A stretch of DNA of 64,000 nt from sequence record NC_014792.1. One strand, 5' to 3'. The translations under genes and the position numbers were made by a program. The DNA is from Escherichia phage vB_EcoM_VR7. Position 1 is the stretch's first letter, and each line of letters starts with the position of its first letter. The notes under the pieces were generated by a model. The model ran no database searches, was not told the DNA's origin, and saw nothing but the letters and a program-made list of their open reading frames with translations. Positions 6,595 through 40,219 of the stretch are shown here, one piece after another.

Positions 6595-6600
6595 CCCTTT

Positions 6601-6918
6601 TTAATCTTCAATTAAGTCCTGGTCATACCCCAGGGATATCAGTTTTGTTTTAAAGGCAGGAATATTGGTCATTTTTTCATCATTGACAAAAATCACCGGG
6701 TAGCGAATGTTAAGGGTAGGATATCCAGCACGCTTAGCCAGAGACACGATTAAAGGCCTGTCATAAGCGATTTCAGAGCCTTGTTTGTTAAGGACTGAAT
6801 AGAATGTATAAGGAAGGTTTAAGGAGCCCAGAAGGCTCCTGACGTACATACAACCAGGACACCGCCCGACTTCTTCGGGAATGCCATAGATTTCAATTTT
6901 AGTCGAGTTTTGGCCCAC
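6601..6918 (-). CDS. Glutaredoxin/thioredoxin-fold protein with CPGC active site (NrdH-like)
   Basis: 105 aa; IEIYGIPEEVGRCPGCMYVRSLL. Confidence 0.55.
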   Translation of the reverse strand: MGQNSTKIEIYGIPEEVGRCPGCMYVRSLLGSLNLPYTFYSVLNKQGSEIAYDRPLIVSLAKRAGYPTLNIRYPVIFVNDEKMTNIPAFKTKLISLGYDQDLIED

Positions 6919-7198
6919 AGGAAATTACTCCTTGGTAGTTCCAGGTTTTAATAACTTCTTCATCACTGGTAGTTTCATACGGAATGTAAACCTGTATAAG
7001 GAAACCAGTGTCATCGAAAGAGAAATAAACTGTCGGTTTGATTCCATGAATCTCGGATTGAGCATAGATATCTTTAAGGTCTTCTTCCTTATCAGCAAAG
7101 AATTCCGGGTTCAGGTCACAGTCATGGAAGTACCATTCATCACCAAACTTGTCCCATGCGGTCCAATTAGTAGCTACATATTCTTCAAAACGTTTCAT
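6899..7198 (-). CDS. Hypothetical protein
   Basis: 99-aa ORF, tiling. Confidence 0.45.
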   Translation of the reverse strand: MKRFEEYVATNWTAWDKFGDEWYFHDCDLNPEFFADKEEDLKDIYAQSEIHGIKPTVYFSFDDTGFLIQVYIPYETTSDEEVIKTWNYQGVISCGPKLD

Positions 7199-7446
7199 TC
7201 TTTCACCTTCAGCATTTTTGCAATGGTATTATGAATAGCCTGGATTCTTTTGTTGAATTCAGAGCTTTCGAGGCCAGGATTAGTGCTTAACCAACCGATG
7301 ATAACAAACAGCAAACCAAACGGGATGGCCAGAATAAGCAGACAAACGATGAACAACACAAGCGTTATATTTGCCAGGATATCTGCCACCGCATTGCGAA
7401 AATTATTCATTAGAAAGGTCCTGTATTGGTTACGAGGAATAGCCAT
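7195..7446 (-). CDS. Hypothetical membrane protein
   Basis: 83 aa with hydrophobic stretch LVLFIVCLLILAIPFGLLFVIIGWL. Confidence 0.45.
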   Translation of the reverse strand: MAIPRNQYRTFLMNNFRNAVADILANITLVLFIVCLLILAIPFGLLFVIIGWLSTNPGLESSEFNKRIQAIHNTIAKMLKVKE

Positions 7447-7531
7447 TGAGAAGGATACTCGTCACCCATCAATCGTATTAAATTGTTTATAGCTTCGCCA
7501 ATACAATACACAATAATTCCATAAAAATTAA

Positions 7532-8005
7532 TCATTTAAGCGATTTCCTCAGTTGTTTTTTAAATGAAGCTTGTAGTTTAGGCTTCGTATCAGATTCATT
7601 ATAAGTCATGCCGTTCAAAAGCATTTCCTGAATCATTTCTTCTTTCCCCAGGCGACCGAACTCTTTGGCTTTGTCTGCCACAAAATTGGGGTGAATATTG
7701 TTTTCGGTATAATCAGATTTCAGATAGACAAGCAAACTCTCTAACCATTCCAGGTAGTCAACATTGCGACCTTTCAGACCCGAGCGGCTGAACTTATGCT
7801 TCATTTGTCCTTCTGTTCCATTGCACAGATTGCATAGTAACCCACGAACTTTACCGGCTTTTGGCCCGTTCAATTCGTGGTCATGGTCAAGATGGTTGGC
7901 CTGAACATCGGAGTCCAAATCACGGTGGCAAATTGGACACTTACCAGCTTGTGCATCATAAAGTTTTTGTTTTTCTTCTTTGTATAATTTGCCAGTCAAC
8001 AACAT
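7532..8005 (-). CDS. 49: Endonuclease VII (Holliday-junction resolvase) gp49
   Basis: 157 aa; MLLTGKLYKEEKQK...HLDHDHELNGPKAGKVRGLLCNLCN... matches remembered T4 gp49. Confidence 0.9.
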   Translation of the reverse strand: MLLTGKLYKEEKQKLYDAQAGKCPICHRDLDSDVQANHLDHDHELNGPKAGKVRGLLCNLCNGTEGQMKHKFSRSGLKGRNVDYLEWLESLLVYLKSDYTENNIHPNFVADKAKEFGRLGKEEMIQEMLLNGMTYNESDTKPKLQASFKKQLRKSLK

Positions 8006-8040
8006 AATAAACCCTTACCATTATTAGATAAGGGTATTTA

Positions 8041-8217
8041 TTAAATATTATAAAACGAGCGATGCAACCGTTTAAATTGTCGAATCATCTTTTTAGTAGG
8101 ACGAGTATATAATCCTACGCAGGTGACCATAAACCGGTCAGTAGGACTTCCTTTGATAAGAAGTTTCCAGACCTTACCACCATTTAACTTTTCGGTATAG
8201 ACTAATACAGTTTTCAT
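8041..8217 (-). CDS. Hypothetical small protein (58 aa)
   Basis: Manual translation MKTVLVYTEKLNGGKVWKLL...; TAATG overlap with upstream gene. Confidence 0.3.
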   Translation of the reverse strand: MKTVLVYTEKLNGGKVWKLLIKGSPTDRFMVTCVGLYTRPTKKMIRQFKRLHRSFYNI

Positions 8218-8489
8218 TAAACAATCCTAAAACAAGGATAATGACATTCAACGTTACCATTATCAATTATCATATACTCTGTGATACAAGTCCATGACCC
8301 TTCAATTTCTATGGTATCAAAAAGGTATTCATCTGCTTCAACAACGTCCCAAACATTACATTCAACATCAGGATCAAAACGTTGTCTTAACGCTTGGATA
8401 ACATCGCCATTTTTAAATCCTGTGTCTTGAAGCTCTTTCATAAAACCTGATTGAGCAGCAGCATGAATATTAACAATTTCTAAAAACAT
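8217..8489 (-). CDS. Hypothetical protein
   Basis: 90-aa ORF, tiling. Confidence 0.45.
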   Translation of the reverse strand: MFLEIVNIHAAAQSGFMKELQDTGFKNGDVIQALRQRFDPDVECNVWDVVEADEYLFDTIEIEGSWTCITEYMIIDNGNVECHYPCFRIV

Positions 8490-8662
8490 TAAAAGACCTC
8501 ATCAGAAAAGCGAAGTTGAGCTTCAAGCCAATGAATATAATCTGCTGCGGCAAAAATTAAAGCAGATTCTTCATCGGGTAACTTACGAGAATCCGACAGC
8601 TCGTAAAGAGAATGTTCAATTAAACGACCTTTATGTCGACCTACTTCAATTTTGGTACTCAT
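8489..8662 (-). CDS. Hypothetical small protein (57 aa)
   Basis: Manual translation MSTKIEVGRHKGRLIEHSLYELS...; TAATG overlap with downstream gene. Confidence 0.3.
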   Translation of the reverse strand: MSTKIEVGRHKGRLIEHSLYELSDSRKLPDEESALIFAAADYIHWLEAQLRFSDEVF

Positions 8663-8778
8663 ATCCAAACTCCATATCGATTAATTCATTGTTTGAAGGT
8701 TCATTATACTCTGTTTCGGAACCATTGTAAACAGGTTCCTCTGGCTCGACAGTTTCAAATCTACATACAAACCAAGGT

Positions 8779-9459
8779 TTATTCATTATTCTTTTTCCTA
8801 GCATCAGAAGCAGCTTTTCTTCTAGTTCTAGTCCTTTCTAAATCAGCAGCAATCAAATTAGCTATATTAGTAACCGGATTACCAAATTCATCATAAGTAA
8901 TATATTTCCAAGCATATCCAAATGTATGATTTCTCTCATTAAGCAGGCACCTTTTAATAGCGCTGCCTGCTTTATAAATTGAAAGAAATTTAGCTGCATC
9001 TGGTAAATAATCAAAAGTTTCTACCAATTCACCTGAACTTAAATCAAATGCACCAAAAAGCTCAATAGTGTATTTACTCCTATCAAGACTGGCTTTAGCT
9101 TCATGCTTTAAGTGGTTTATTTCTTTTAGAATTTTAAGGTCTAATTGTCCTGGTATTTTATCTATCTGTACACCCATTCTAGATAAAGCATACCCCATTT
9201 TATAGTTTCCTGATTTGGCCAACCAATAGTGAGCCATAATATGGCTTTCTATACTTAGATTTACAAGATTCCATTTAGACGTTTTAAATTCAGGAAATAA
9301 GGATTTAGGTAATATATGGTGAGACTCGGTTTTACCTTTTATTAAAGGCCCGGAAGACTCTATTAAAGAGAAATAGTTTTCAGCAAATTGCCAATAAGGC
9401 AATTTGCTTTTAAGAAGTTCTTTAATTTCGTCTAAGGTTTTAGTAGGCTTAACGGTCAC
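8779..9459 (-). CDS. HNH homing-endonuclease-like protein
   Basis: 226 aa; ESHHILPKS...NLVNLSIESH (HNH-type motif); AT-rich relative to neighbours. Confidence 0.6.
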   Translation of the reverse strand: MTVKPTKTLDEIKELLKSKLPYWQFAENYFSLIESSGPLIKGKTESHHILPKSLFPEFKTSKWNLVNLSIESHIMAHYWLAKSGNYKMGYALSRMGVQIDKIPGQLDLKILKEINHLKHEAKASLDRSKYTIELFGAFDLSSGELVETFDYLPDAAKFLSIYKAGSAIKRCLLNERNHTFGYAWKYITYDEFGNPVTNIANLIAADLERTRTRRKAASDARKKNNE

Positions 9460-9757
9460 ACCACCAACTACTTACTTCAAAATCAGGCTCGCCGTCGTCC
9501 CAATACCAAGGACCAACCGGATGCCAATCGCCATGCTTATCTTCTTCGTATTCTTCAGATTCTAGTCCAACGTATTGCCATTGGACTTCATAAGCAGTGC
9601 CACCAATTACGACAGTGTTTTCACCATACGGGTTAGCCACAGCAAAGTCAATGCCTTCTTCTTTCGCCAGGGCTACCATGTATTCATAGAGTTTATATTC
9701 CAGGTCGTCTTCGTTACCATCGCCCAGATAAATTGTTTGTCCACTTAATTCACTCAT
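9449..9757 (-). CDS. Hypothetical acidic protein
   Basis: 102-aa ORF. Confidence 0.45.
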   Translation of the reverse strand: MSELSGQTIYLGDGNEDDLEYKLYEYMVALAKEEGIDFAVANPYGENTVVIGGTAYEVQWQYVGLESEEYEEDKHGDWHPVGPWYWDDGEPDFEVSSWWCDR

Positions 9758-9779
9758 AATTCCGCCATAAATTTGTCAT

Positions 9780-9947
9780 TCATTTAAAGTTCCAGAATGA
9801 AGCACCAACCAGAAATAAAGGCCAACAAATCATAGACGTCAGCCACCAACAAAAATCACCTGCGCCGAAATCATCCAATTTAGCTAGGGTCTTAGCATAG
9901 CCAATACCAATGATAATATACAAAACACCCAACAATAATTCAATCAT
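9780..9947 (-). CDS. Hypothetical small membrane protein (55 aa)
   Basis: Manual translation MIELLLGVLYIIIGIGYAKT...; ATGA overlap with nrdC stop. Confidence 0.3.
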   Translation of the reverse strand: MIELLLGVLYIIIGIGYAKTLAKLDDFGAGDFCWWLTSMICWPLFLVGASFWNFK

Positions 9948-10207
9948 TTGAAATATTCTCGCAGTTCAGTGAACCCACCAATATGACTTCCGTCAGGAGC
10001 AAACACTTGTGGCATAGTCAAACCAATTTGAGATTCGCGACCAAGTGCAGCCAGGAGTTGAGCAATCTTCTCATCATCAAACACACCTTTTTCTGGCATG
10101 ACGTTGATGAATTCGTAAGGTTGTTTTTTAACATCCAAAAAACGTTTTGCATTATCGCAGAATACACAGCGATGGATAGATGAATCATAACCATATACTT
10201 TAAACAT
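9944..10207 (-). CDS. nrdC: Glutaredoxin NrdC
   Basis: 87 aa; MFKVYGYDSSIHRCVFCDNAKRFL... matches remembered T4 NrdC. Confidence 0.85.
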   Translation of the reverse strand: MFKVYGYDSSIHRCVFCDNAKRFLDVKKQPYEFINVMPEKGVFDDEKIAQLLAALGRESQIGLTMPQVFAPDGSHIGGFTELREYFK

Positions 10208-10208
10208 A

Positions 10209-10466
10209 TTATTCCGTAATTCCTAATACTTGTTTGAAGGTCTCAGTATAATCGGAGTATTGACCGGTTTGTTCTTTATGTTTGTCCATAATATCATAAA
10301 CTTCTGAACGCATATTATTATACGAACGGGTTAAAGCGGATTTCAATACTGAATAACTATCCGGGAATTTACCGTGTTCTTTATAATAGGCCAGAGTTAA
10401 TTCACGGACCGCCTTATCAGCAGTCTCAAGATATTCTTTACGCTTTGCCATTTTCTTCTCGCTCAA
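10209..10466 (-). CDS. Hypothetical protein
   Basis: 85-aa ORF. Confidence 0.45.
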
Positions 10467-10740
10467 ATCGGTGTTTACAATGTCTGCATTTATATTGAAG
10501 CGGAGAGCTACGCCAATAAGTCAATTGGACCTGTTCAGTTCCACATTCAGGGCAGTTCGGAACGTTTTTAGAAGCTTGTTCACGTCGTTCGACAATTTTA
10601 ATAATCGCATTCCAATCAGGAATATCTTGACTATAATCATCACAACCGTGAATCTTACCAATCAATTCGGCTCCTTTAATAAAGTTCAATAAACCTGTAT
10701 TAGATGCTGAAGCAATGTCTTCTCTTAAACGTTGTTTCAT
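10438..10740 (-). CDS. Hypothetical zinc-ribbon protein
   Basis: 100 aa; CPECG...CRHCKH pairs. Confidence 0.45.
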
Positions 10741-38190: not shown

Positions 38191-38867
38191 TATATTACCT
38201 TATTAATTTTATCAAAAAGTTCTTCGAGTGTGCCATCGTTTTTAATAACAATGTCACTAGCTAGTGGTGGAAGTCCAGCTTCCGTAATGTGTGTATCAGT
38301 AGAATGATTTGCTTCATCGCGTTCTACAAAGATTATTGTAGCACCCATCGCCCGAAGCGAATCAAGTTCGTTCTTTTGGCGAACATCTGGGACAACGTAA
38401 TATTTATATCCAGAATAGAGGTTGTCAAGATAATCGCATGCAAAAGTTTTAATCCAAAACATGCTGTCGAACTCTGTACAAACGATATCAGTTCCAAGGG
38501 TCTGCATGAAACGTCTAACTGTCCAGGGCTCAACATTATTTAGTGTGTGAAATTCAATGATTTTACGAACCATATCTGGATTCGGAAGGTCAAGATTATA
38601 TTGTTGTTTCAACCATTCAAGAGCGTCAACCAGAAGAATATGAGCTTCAGTGTTGTTCATTATCAAGGTTTTTTCACGGTCATAACCTTGTCCATCAAAA
38701 TTTTCCAGGGTCAAATTGTGTGGCAGGTCTTGACGAACCCACGCTTTATAAAGCGCTTCTTTAATTGGACCAGCAAGTTGCCACTTTGTTCCGTTTTGAC
38801 TAATAACATAATCAGCGGTCGTATCTTTACCACTGCGTTTTTTACCCACAATCGCAATTAATTTCAT
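38190..38867 (-). CDS. 1: dNMP kinase gp1
   Basis: 225 aa; P-loop GKKRSGKDT at N-terminus; synteny 57A-1-3. Confidence 0.85.
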
Positions 38868-39463
38868 ACGTTTCTCATAGATGGATGCATTGACTTAGAC
38901 CTGATTTCCTGTTGCATTGCTGCATTACTATCAATCTGTGGTCTACCTTCTATTATTATACCATCAATTTCTACAGCAAAAGACTTAAAGTTAAAAGTTG
39001 CTGTTGCATTGATAGCAGGGTCAGAATCTTCTTTATATGAATACTGAATCTCTGACAGGTCGGACGGCCATGCTCCATAGTAATGGATTGACATGACAAT
39101 TTTGTCCTTGTTGTTATCTAAGATATGAAGCGTGACCGCTTCGGGACGACCCTTTGGATGCCATGCTTTTGATTCGTGTGTGATGTAGTTATTAAGCGAG
39201 AGCATCCATTTATAGATATCAAGCCATGCCCTTAGGTCTTTGTCACACAGAAAGTTAACAATCAGCGGGTCGAATTCTATTGTACTACCAGGAAGACTGG
39301 AGCGATTTATACCTTGCGTTCCGCCGGGGACATCCGTCACAGGAATGTGAACCCCTGGGAGGGTAACGTCTTGAACGTTGAGTTTAAAAGTCTGTGTGAG
39401 GTTTGAATCGCTTACCTCTAATATAAAGTTAGTCGTGTTAGTTTGATTATATAAACCTGACAT
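38864..39463 (-). CDS. 3: gp3 tail completion/sheath stabiliser (by synteny)
   Basis: 199 aa between genes 1 and 2; assignment by position only. Confidence 0.55.
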   Translation of the reverse strand: MSGLYNQTNTTNFILEVSDSNLTQTFKLNVQDVTLPGVHIPVTDVPGGTQGINRSSLPGSTIEFDPLIVNFLCDKDLRAWLDIYKWMLSLNNYITHESKAWHPKGRPEAVTLHILDNNKDKIVMSIHYYGAWPSDLSEIQYSYKEDSDPAINATATFNFKSFAVEIDGIIIEGRPQIDSNAAMQQEIRSKSMHPSMRNV

Positions 39464-39547: not shown

Positions 39548-40219
39548 TTATTTTATTAATGTGTTAAGTCTTAGCTTAGTCATAAACGGATAACGTTCCA
39601 ACATTGGCTTTACCCAGTATCGAGGATGCAATTCCTTTTTATATGCTAGGACCAACTCTCGAGCTTGCTCGACGGTATCAACTCCGAAGTTTTTACACAT
39701 TTCTTGCCTATCTTTTTCCCACCGGCGCTTTGATAATTCTGCGTTGACTTTCGTAAATGTATCATTCTTTCGGTTGTGTTTTTTGCCCGTTGTTGGGCTG
39801 TAATGTCTTCCTTTAACGAATCCTTCTGGAACGTCTTCCCACGGAAATAATTTTATCGATTTGACACCATTATTAAAATAAACTTTTCCCGTTTGACTTT
39901 TCGAAATGTTGTTGGCATGTTTACGTCTTAACCAACCAAATAATTTATTGTTATGCCGTTTATGATTTTTTGAATTTTGTGCCATTGTTGTTGCGGCAAA
40001 ACTTAACCCAGGATGTGTGGGATATATTTTAACCAGTAATTGATGCGCGACATAATGTTCTTCGGGTGTTAAATTAACCAGATTATCTGGGTCATTGGAA
40101 CCGCCCATACATTTTGGAATGATGTGATGAGATTCTTTATATGAAATCAGGACCCTGTTACGGGCCCTTTCAATTAACGATGAATATATAAACTGATAAT
40201 TCAAAGTGAATTTCTCCAA
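39548..40219 (-). CDS. HNH homing-endonuclease-like protein inserted between genes 3 and 2
   Basis: 223 aa; [27 protein letters not shown] (HNH motif). Confidence 0.6.

Follow-up and report, generated by a model that had tools for sequence, protein, structure and literature searches.

A compact MobC-like HNH endonuclease gene, probably a mobile cassette, at the 49.3/49.1 junction of a T4-like phage

A 226-aa open reading frame (ORF) seated between the genes 49.3 and 49.1 is probably the gene of a homing endonuclease: compact and free-standing, of the HNH (His-Me finger) type, and a member of the T4 Mob family nearest to MobC. It probably moves as a promoterless cassette of 735 bp at this junction. 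The window, that is, the whole stretch of 64,000 nucleotides analyzed here, derives from a Gaprivervirus, a T4-like phage of the Straboviridae, and the closest records found by megablast are VR26, VR25 and DK-13 (93-97% identity). Since free-standing homing endonucleases are routine in T4-like genomes, the presence of one is unsurprising; what makes this copy valuable is how clean it is, with both junctions resolved to the base and a recoded patch of sequence adjoining it. The genes at the locus are the following:

8779 to 9459, minus strand: endonuclease ORF, a mob-type (MobC-like) free-standing HNH gene of 226 aa with a GTG start (ORF listing and homology)
9449 to 9757, minus strand: 49.3 homologue, the upstream neighbor (PHROG 4203, 5e-47; annotations of relatives)
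8646 to 8786, minus strand: 49.1 homologue (translation; PHROG 2382; DK-13 annotation)
7532 to 8005, strand not given: gene 49 (Pfam Endonuclease_7 and EndoVII dimerisation domain)
9944 to 10207, strand not given: nrdC (Pfam Glutaredoxin match)

The initial annotation had described a 226-aa ORF carrying the motifs ESHHILPKS and NLVNLSIESH, and the ORF listing bears this out, with the two motifs at residues 45-53 and 64-73, respectively. The GTG codon is the only possible start near the N-terminus; the first internal methionine is residue 85, and the alignments with homologues begin at residues 6-12. The assigned location between gene 49 and nrdC was also correct and can be given more precisely as between 49.3 and 49.1, both of which are intact around the endonuclease gene, so that the gene is free-standing and lies inside neither an intron nor an intein. 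Base composition, likewise, agrees with the description of the gene as more AT-rich than its neighbors: its GC content is 32.6% (22.5% at third codon positions) versus a window mean of 40.0% (standard deviation 2.7%, 681-nt windows), an outlier value reached by just 0.14% of the equal-sized windows, and the GC contents of 49.3 and gene 49 are 44.7% and 41.1%. The small downstream genes (8041..8668) are themselves fairly AT-rich, at 33-38% GC, and the compositional contrast is therefore sharpest toward 49.3. Upstream of gene 49 the locus is a mosaic (6600..7535), in which nrdH and small 55.x genes adjoin gene 49 in the window and in VR26, whereas nrdD abuts gene 49 in DK-13 and VR25. Over the segment 8232..8532, the window and DK-13 are strongly diverged: every 100 nt contain 60-96 differences, indels included.

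A resemblance to the mob-type free-standing HNH endonucleases of T4 had been proposed for the product, and profile and homology searches support it. PHROG 655, named 'homing endonuclease', matches residues 2-120 (1.2e-28). By BLASTP, MobC of Yersinia phage PST (AGR46025) aligns in two blocks, with 65% identity over residues 36-95 and 50% identity over residues 127-188 (E 8e-27 and 2e-16 for the two blocks), T4 MobB matches residues 44-195 at 28% identity (E 9e-13), and the match to T4 MobE covers the HNH core, with 33% identity across 61 residues (E 2e-6). Searching phage genomes by tblastn returned matching genes annotated as MobC, MobB, MobD-like and MobE. While a word-indexed homologue search gave one near-identical protein alone, the family was reached by exhaustive representative and profile searches: the exhaustive HMMER search yielded 701 relatives at E<=1e-3, with source names that include 'MobE homing endonuclease' and 'HNH endonuclease', and among the relatives found by profile search many carry NUMOD3 and a few PF01844, PF13392 or PF22083.

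The endonuclease itself has no Pfam or NCBIfam match, neither as the full protein nor as two halves, even at E<=1, and phmmer against PDB sequences returned no match. Its link to a curated HNH model is transitive and runs through MobB, which scores 22.5 bits on PF01844 (cut-off 21.4). Pfam NUMOD1 (PF07453) and I-HmuI_NUMOD-like (PF22083) gave no match in the window protein; the MobC segment homologous to its C-terminal domain falls below threshold as well (21.1 and 17.3 bits), and MobB passes NUMOD1 at 92.6 bits. Because direct Pfam and NCBIfam matches are lacking and each fold or PDB-profile match is weak by itself, the assignment to the HNH class rests on converging evidence together with the Mob homology. 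The residues H48, N64 and H73 of the H-N-H motif, plus H77, are all present, and in alignments of 30-127 relatives the columns of H47, H48, P51, N64, L68, H73 and H77 show either no variation or conservation above 90%. Judged by its homology to MobC, MobB and MobE, the protein belongs to the T4 Mob family, and the designation 'mob-type' can be narrowed: the endonuclease is compact and MobC-like, with a shortened linker.

Four parts of the protein are distinguished:

9166 to 9438, minus strand: N-terminal nuclease domain, residues 8-98
9214 to 9330, minus strand: ββα His-Me core, residues 44-82, with the family-invariant H47, H48, P51, N64, H73 and H77
8896 to 9063, minus strand: predicted C-terminal ββ-αα-β helix-turn-helix (HTH) DNA-binding domain, residues 133-188, NUMOD1 / I-HmuI-like
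8785 to 8865, minus strand: basic C-terminal helix, residues 199-225, ...ERTRTRRKAASDARKKNNE (AlphaFold secondary structure)

AlphaFold2, run with a 127-sequence alignment, gave a model with a mean pLDDT of 83, and of 87 for the N-domain alone. The predicted ββα unit consists of a strand at residues 44-48, a second strand at 65-69 and a helix at 70-82, and carries H48, N64, H73 and H77; it is followed by a helical linker, a β-β-α-α-β module (residues 135-186) and the long basic helix, the predicted HTH fold at the C-terminus being made of three strands and two helices. With the whole model, Foldseek ranked I-HmuI first (E 0.085), and neither the whole model nor the N-domain matched anything in the PDB at E<=0.001. 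The N-domain matches were mostly HNH nucleases, none of them significant (Cas8f-HNH, Gme HNH nickase, Cap5, teneurin toxin domain and GVE2 HNH). Profile comparison with PDB sequences brought up HNH proteins only after the profile had been trimmed to the N-domain; these matches were marginal (Cas8f-HNH 0.012, group II intron maturase 0.027, McrA 0.08), and the HH…N…H motif lined up in each of the three. With the full-length family profile, the linker region drew matches to low-complexity helical proteins and to nothing else; these were rejected as noise. A His-Me finger fold is thus predicted by several lines of evidence, each weak to moderate and all agreeing. The basic C-terminal helix is missing from the MobC-like relatives in the alignment, which stop right after WKYI, and a comparison of this tail with 49.2 and neighboring DNA gave no similarity beyond chance 9-11-mers.

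Synteny comparison showed that the gene is exceptional at its locus. Among 665 related phage records with a matching 2.9-kb neighborhood, 664 lack it and only DK-13 has it, as an identical gene annotated 'putative homing endonuclease'; the gene is therefore far from uniformly present among relatives, and its composition is not that of the surrounding genome. When a VR26 probe spanning pin to 49.3 was used, 49.3 abutted 49.1 in 36 of the 60 best-matching records (span 595-599 nt), and gene 49.2 lay in between in the other 24 (span 910-917 nt). The latter gene is widespread, with 562 phage records, T4 included; some records carry it under the name 'nucleotide reductase subunit C'. Since the empty, the 49.2-bearing and the endonuclease-bearing states are all seen, the 49.3/49.1 junction represents a three-allele polymorphism (Gaprivervirus and Dhakavirus).

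The exact endonuclease protein is also encoded on four metagenome contigs, each time between 49.3 and 49.1, and all six other occurrences that were found of the gene share this site. Comparison of these copies delimits the element, and the following features are used below:

8725 to 9459, minus strand: mobile cassette of 735 bp (no mismatch to DK-13 or to any of four metagenome contigs; flanks diverged)
9449 to 9459, minus strand: 11-nt overlap GTGACCGTTAA of the endonuclease start with the 49.3 stop (alignment and annotations of VR26, VR5 and JS98)
8754 to 8777, minus strand: recoded 5' end of 49.1 (CCTTGGTTTGTATGTAGATTTGAA), a candidate disrupted or immune target site (local divergence)

The window shows 0/735 mismatches within the cassette to DK-13 and to each of the four contigs, while the flanks differ by 3-20%. 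Identity to DK-13 ends abruptly, with seven mismatches within the 13 nt directly upstream of the cassette, and the nearer flanks differ at about 6-10 positions per 100 nt. Backgrounds also differ in kind: the window has a VR26-like and DK-13 a VR25-like 3' end of 49.3, and an extra 62-aa ORF lies upstream in two of the metagenome contigs and is absent from the window and DK-13. Altogether, the six identical cassettes (window, DK-13 and four contigs) occupy at least three flanking backgrounds. A variant copy, L014, is 98% identical, with 13 of 735 nt different; its 11 codon changes within the ORF comprise seven synonymous and four non-synonymous ones, and the catalytic residues are kept. That the element is far more alike between genomes than its flanks indicates, at the level of sequence comparison, recent horizontal spread, although the five identical copies could also reflect one recent lineage and ordinary recombination rather than nuclease-driven homing. 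In DK-13 the end of 49.3 follows the VR25 (49.2-bearing) type as far as GTGACC, which suggests that in this phage the cassette arrived in a 49.2-type background and took the place of 49.2.

The anatomy of the junctions points to insertion. Where the site is empty, in genomes from two genera (VR26, TH44, TH15, VR5 and JS98), the GTG start of 49.1 overlaps the stop of 49.3; this 49.1 start reads GTGACCGTTAAGCC ATG GTA… and its product (M)TVKPWY…. In the window, GTGACCGTTAAGCC begins the endonuclease instead (MTVKPTKT…). Given the shared GTG and first codons (MTVKP), the cassette appears to have entered an empty-type allele just downstream of the fifth 49.1 codon, capturing the start of that gene and the 11-nt overlap. 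The other end of the cassette supplies ATGAATAAACC: here the endonuclease stop and the new ATG of 49.1 share an 8-nt overlap (ATGAATAA), and the 49.1 product now begins MNKPWF…. These data bear directly on the idea that the gene is an ancestral resident, lost from most relatives by repeated deletion instead of gained by insertion. The presence and absence of 49.2 at the same site does tell us that deletions occur there, yet a resident gene would have to be reconciled with its occurrence in a single one of the related records, its strongly deviant composition, the mismatch-free cassette between genomes with diverged flanks and a start and first codons that are those of 49.1 in the empty-site genomes of two genera (VR26, VR5 and JS98), which is the signature of an insertion; we regard this explanation as scarcely credible.

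Immediately beyond the endonuclease gene, the 5' end of 49.1 is recoded. Within this 24-nt patch, 9-10 of the 24 positions differ from every endonuclease-free allele, whereas over the 254 nt that follow the difference is 2-13% (Fisher p 2.5e-9 to 5e-3), and the same 24-nt stretch is invariant among the naive Gaprivervirus alleles, whether empty or 49.2-bearing. The phage collection contained no recoded 49.1 patch without the endonuclease, the best partial matches (about 80%) being from Klebsiella and Enterobacter phages. On this pattern of divergence, the patch is likely to be the immune form of the target site, but it could also be flanking DNA that was co-converted from a divergent donor and is not the target.

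No expression signals of its own were detected for the gene: neither a promoter-like motif nor, within 8000..10500, a T4 late promoter (TATAAATA) was found. The start and stop overlaps with 49.3 and 49.1 imply that the endonuclease gene is expressed within the existing operon, with 49.3 as the probable source of transcription and, as the overlap would suggest, of translational coupling. This arrangement is familiar from T4, in which free-standing endonucleases are promoterless cassettes overlapping the ORF upstream of them, by 11 bp in the case of segF, and in which mobA starts with GUG (PMC2988022). A terminator-like hairpin is present in mobE, whereas the window ORF contains none on its coding strand, the sole such hairpin being on the opposite strand. 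Inside 49.1 lies a near-consensus sigma-70-type promoter (TTTACA-17-TATAAT, 11/12; 8703..8731, minus strand), which is positioned upstream of the small pin-like gene 8489..8668 and is conserved in the aligned relatives.

Based on these observations, a homing cycle can be proposed. The endonuclease gene would be co-transcribed with the nrdC-49 operon, coupling to 49.3 would give low-level translation, and the gene product would bind DNA via the HTH and perhaps also via the basic tail. During mixed infection, the HNH domain would then nick or cut endonuclease-free alleles, both empty and 49.2-bearing, most likely as a strand-specific nick by analogy with MobE and I-HmuI, and probably in the conserved 5' end of 49.1, such that naive alleles would be cleaved near CCATGGTATACCGCTCGATGG. 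T4-type recombination-dependent repair from the carrier genome would copy the cassette in, displacing 49.2 where present, while the carrier itself would be protected by the recoded 24-nt patch. We further suggest, tentatively, that the recognition site may be the 49.3-stop/49.1-start junction, which the insertion split and whose 3' half (8754..8777) it rewrote, that this minimal Mob endonuclease may convert empty as well as 49.2 alleles, and that the basic helix is perhaps a new DNA-contact module compensating for lost linker repeats. If both types of allele were converted, the element would be a driver deleting the conserved 49.2 from phage populations.

Among known systems, the closest named relative is MobC of T4-like phages (e.g. 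PST), which lies between nrdD and nrdG. Both endonucleases are encoded by free-standing cassettes of the promoterless type that overlap the upstream ORF (PMC2988022), and they differ in site (49.3/49.1 versus nrdD/nrdG) and in size, the window protein having 226 aa and MobC 279 aa. The window endonuclease lacks the repeat-rich linker of about 120 residues that separates the two homologous blocks in MobC, and possesses in addition a 38-residue basic C-terminal tail and the GTG start captured from 49.1. T4 MobE shares the N-terminal HNH domain, with no significant alignment past residue 82; like the window gene it is free-standing, and it is co-transcribed with its upstream neighbor, although its site is nrdA/nrdB. 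For MobE, an HNH-dependent, strand-specific nick in a neighboring gene (T2 nrdB) and spread by gene conversion (homing) have been shown experimentally (PMC2790892). T4 MobB aligns with both domains of the window endonuclease and passes Pfam HNH and NUMOD1; it has two NUMOD1 repeats, with which the C-terminal domain of the window protein aligns, and a NUMOD3 motif, where the window protein has a single HTH, and the MobB core reads 'P..MGG..D..N' in place of 'PKSLFPEFKTSKWN'. I-HmuI of Bacillus phage SPO1 (PDB 1u3e) is intron-encoded, unlike the free-standing window endonuclease, and about 15% identical to it; I-HmuI is assigned to His-Me group 2 (HNH_3), the T4 proteins MobA-E to group 1 (Jablonska et al., PMC5714182). 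The 49.3/49.1 site is not used by any of the five T4 mob genes. For mobC and mobE themselves, replacement by SegH/Hef is said to occur, a report attributed to Sandegren et al. 2005.

With the MobC linker missing, DNA reach and specificity may differ, or the endonuclease could be a crippled derivative. Taken further, the gene would be a decaying or inactive Mob-type remnant that no longer cuts and is kept since it is stitched into the operon, through the start context of 49.1 and read-through from 49.3, much like the defunct I-TevIII of T4. Defunct endonucleases are indeed retained in T4 (PMC2790892), there is T4 precedent for retention via embedded expression signals (PMC2988022), and the lost residues and the absence of a direct match to a curated HNH model would fit such a fate. 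The ORF is nevertheless intact, with H47, H48, P51, N64, H73 and H77 all in place and both domains predicted with high confidence, and I-HmuI functions with an equally compact architecture (174 aa). Moreover, the identical copies in several diverged backgrounds indicate recent spread, and synonymous codon changes outnumber non-synonymous ones in L014. An inactive remnant is for these reasons unlikely, and an active homing endonuclease remains our preferred reading.

An active site-specific nuclease might also have a main role other than its own homing, namely the exclusion of co-infecting relatives or the promotion of recombination or amplification of neighboring genes, as reported for SegB. 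Side effects of this kind have been shown for phage homing endonucleases (PMC13096335), and such endonucleases mark boundaries of genetic exchange (PMC10448857); here, recombination breakpoints fall exactly at the cassette edges, and the cassette replaces the conserved 49.2. Against this, the locus gives no hint of a cargo or defence function, and the idea builds on the homing mechanism without displacing it. The tract of identity covers the endonuclease and 54 nt only, and there is thus no sign that neighboring genes were co-mobilized. We consider such a primary role quite improbable and favor homing of the cassette itself.

The unusually clean delimitation of the cassette allows the likely target site to be guessed, and this offers a concrete hypothesis for the MobC clade; for MobC, no cleavage site is given in Table 1 of PMC2988022. 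The cassette also illustrates how a selfish gene can take over the start codon of a neighbor and replace a conserved gene, 49.2.

Other nuclease-like genes were observed in the window. A second Mob-type HNH gene (39548..40219, minus strand; 223 aa, TTG start as listed) adjoins a gene with a T4 gp19 tail-tube-like domain (38864..39463); its product matches Pfam PF01844 exactly at the cut-off (21.4 bits) and shows 42% identity to residues 29-82 of the endonuclease described here. Finally, a 184-aa ORF (33997..34551, minus strand) lies in the lowest-GC stretch of the window (31.9%) and matches Pfam MUG113 (34.7 bits) and T5orf172 (26.7 bits). As T5orf172 proteins have been discussed as a class of homing endonucleases (PMC10448857), this ORF is another candidate selfish nuclease-like gene.
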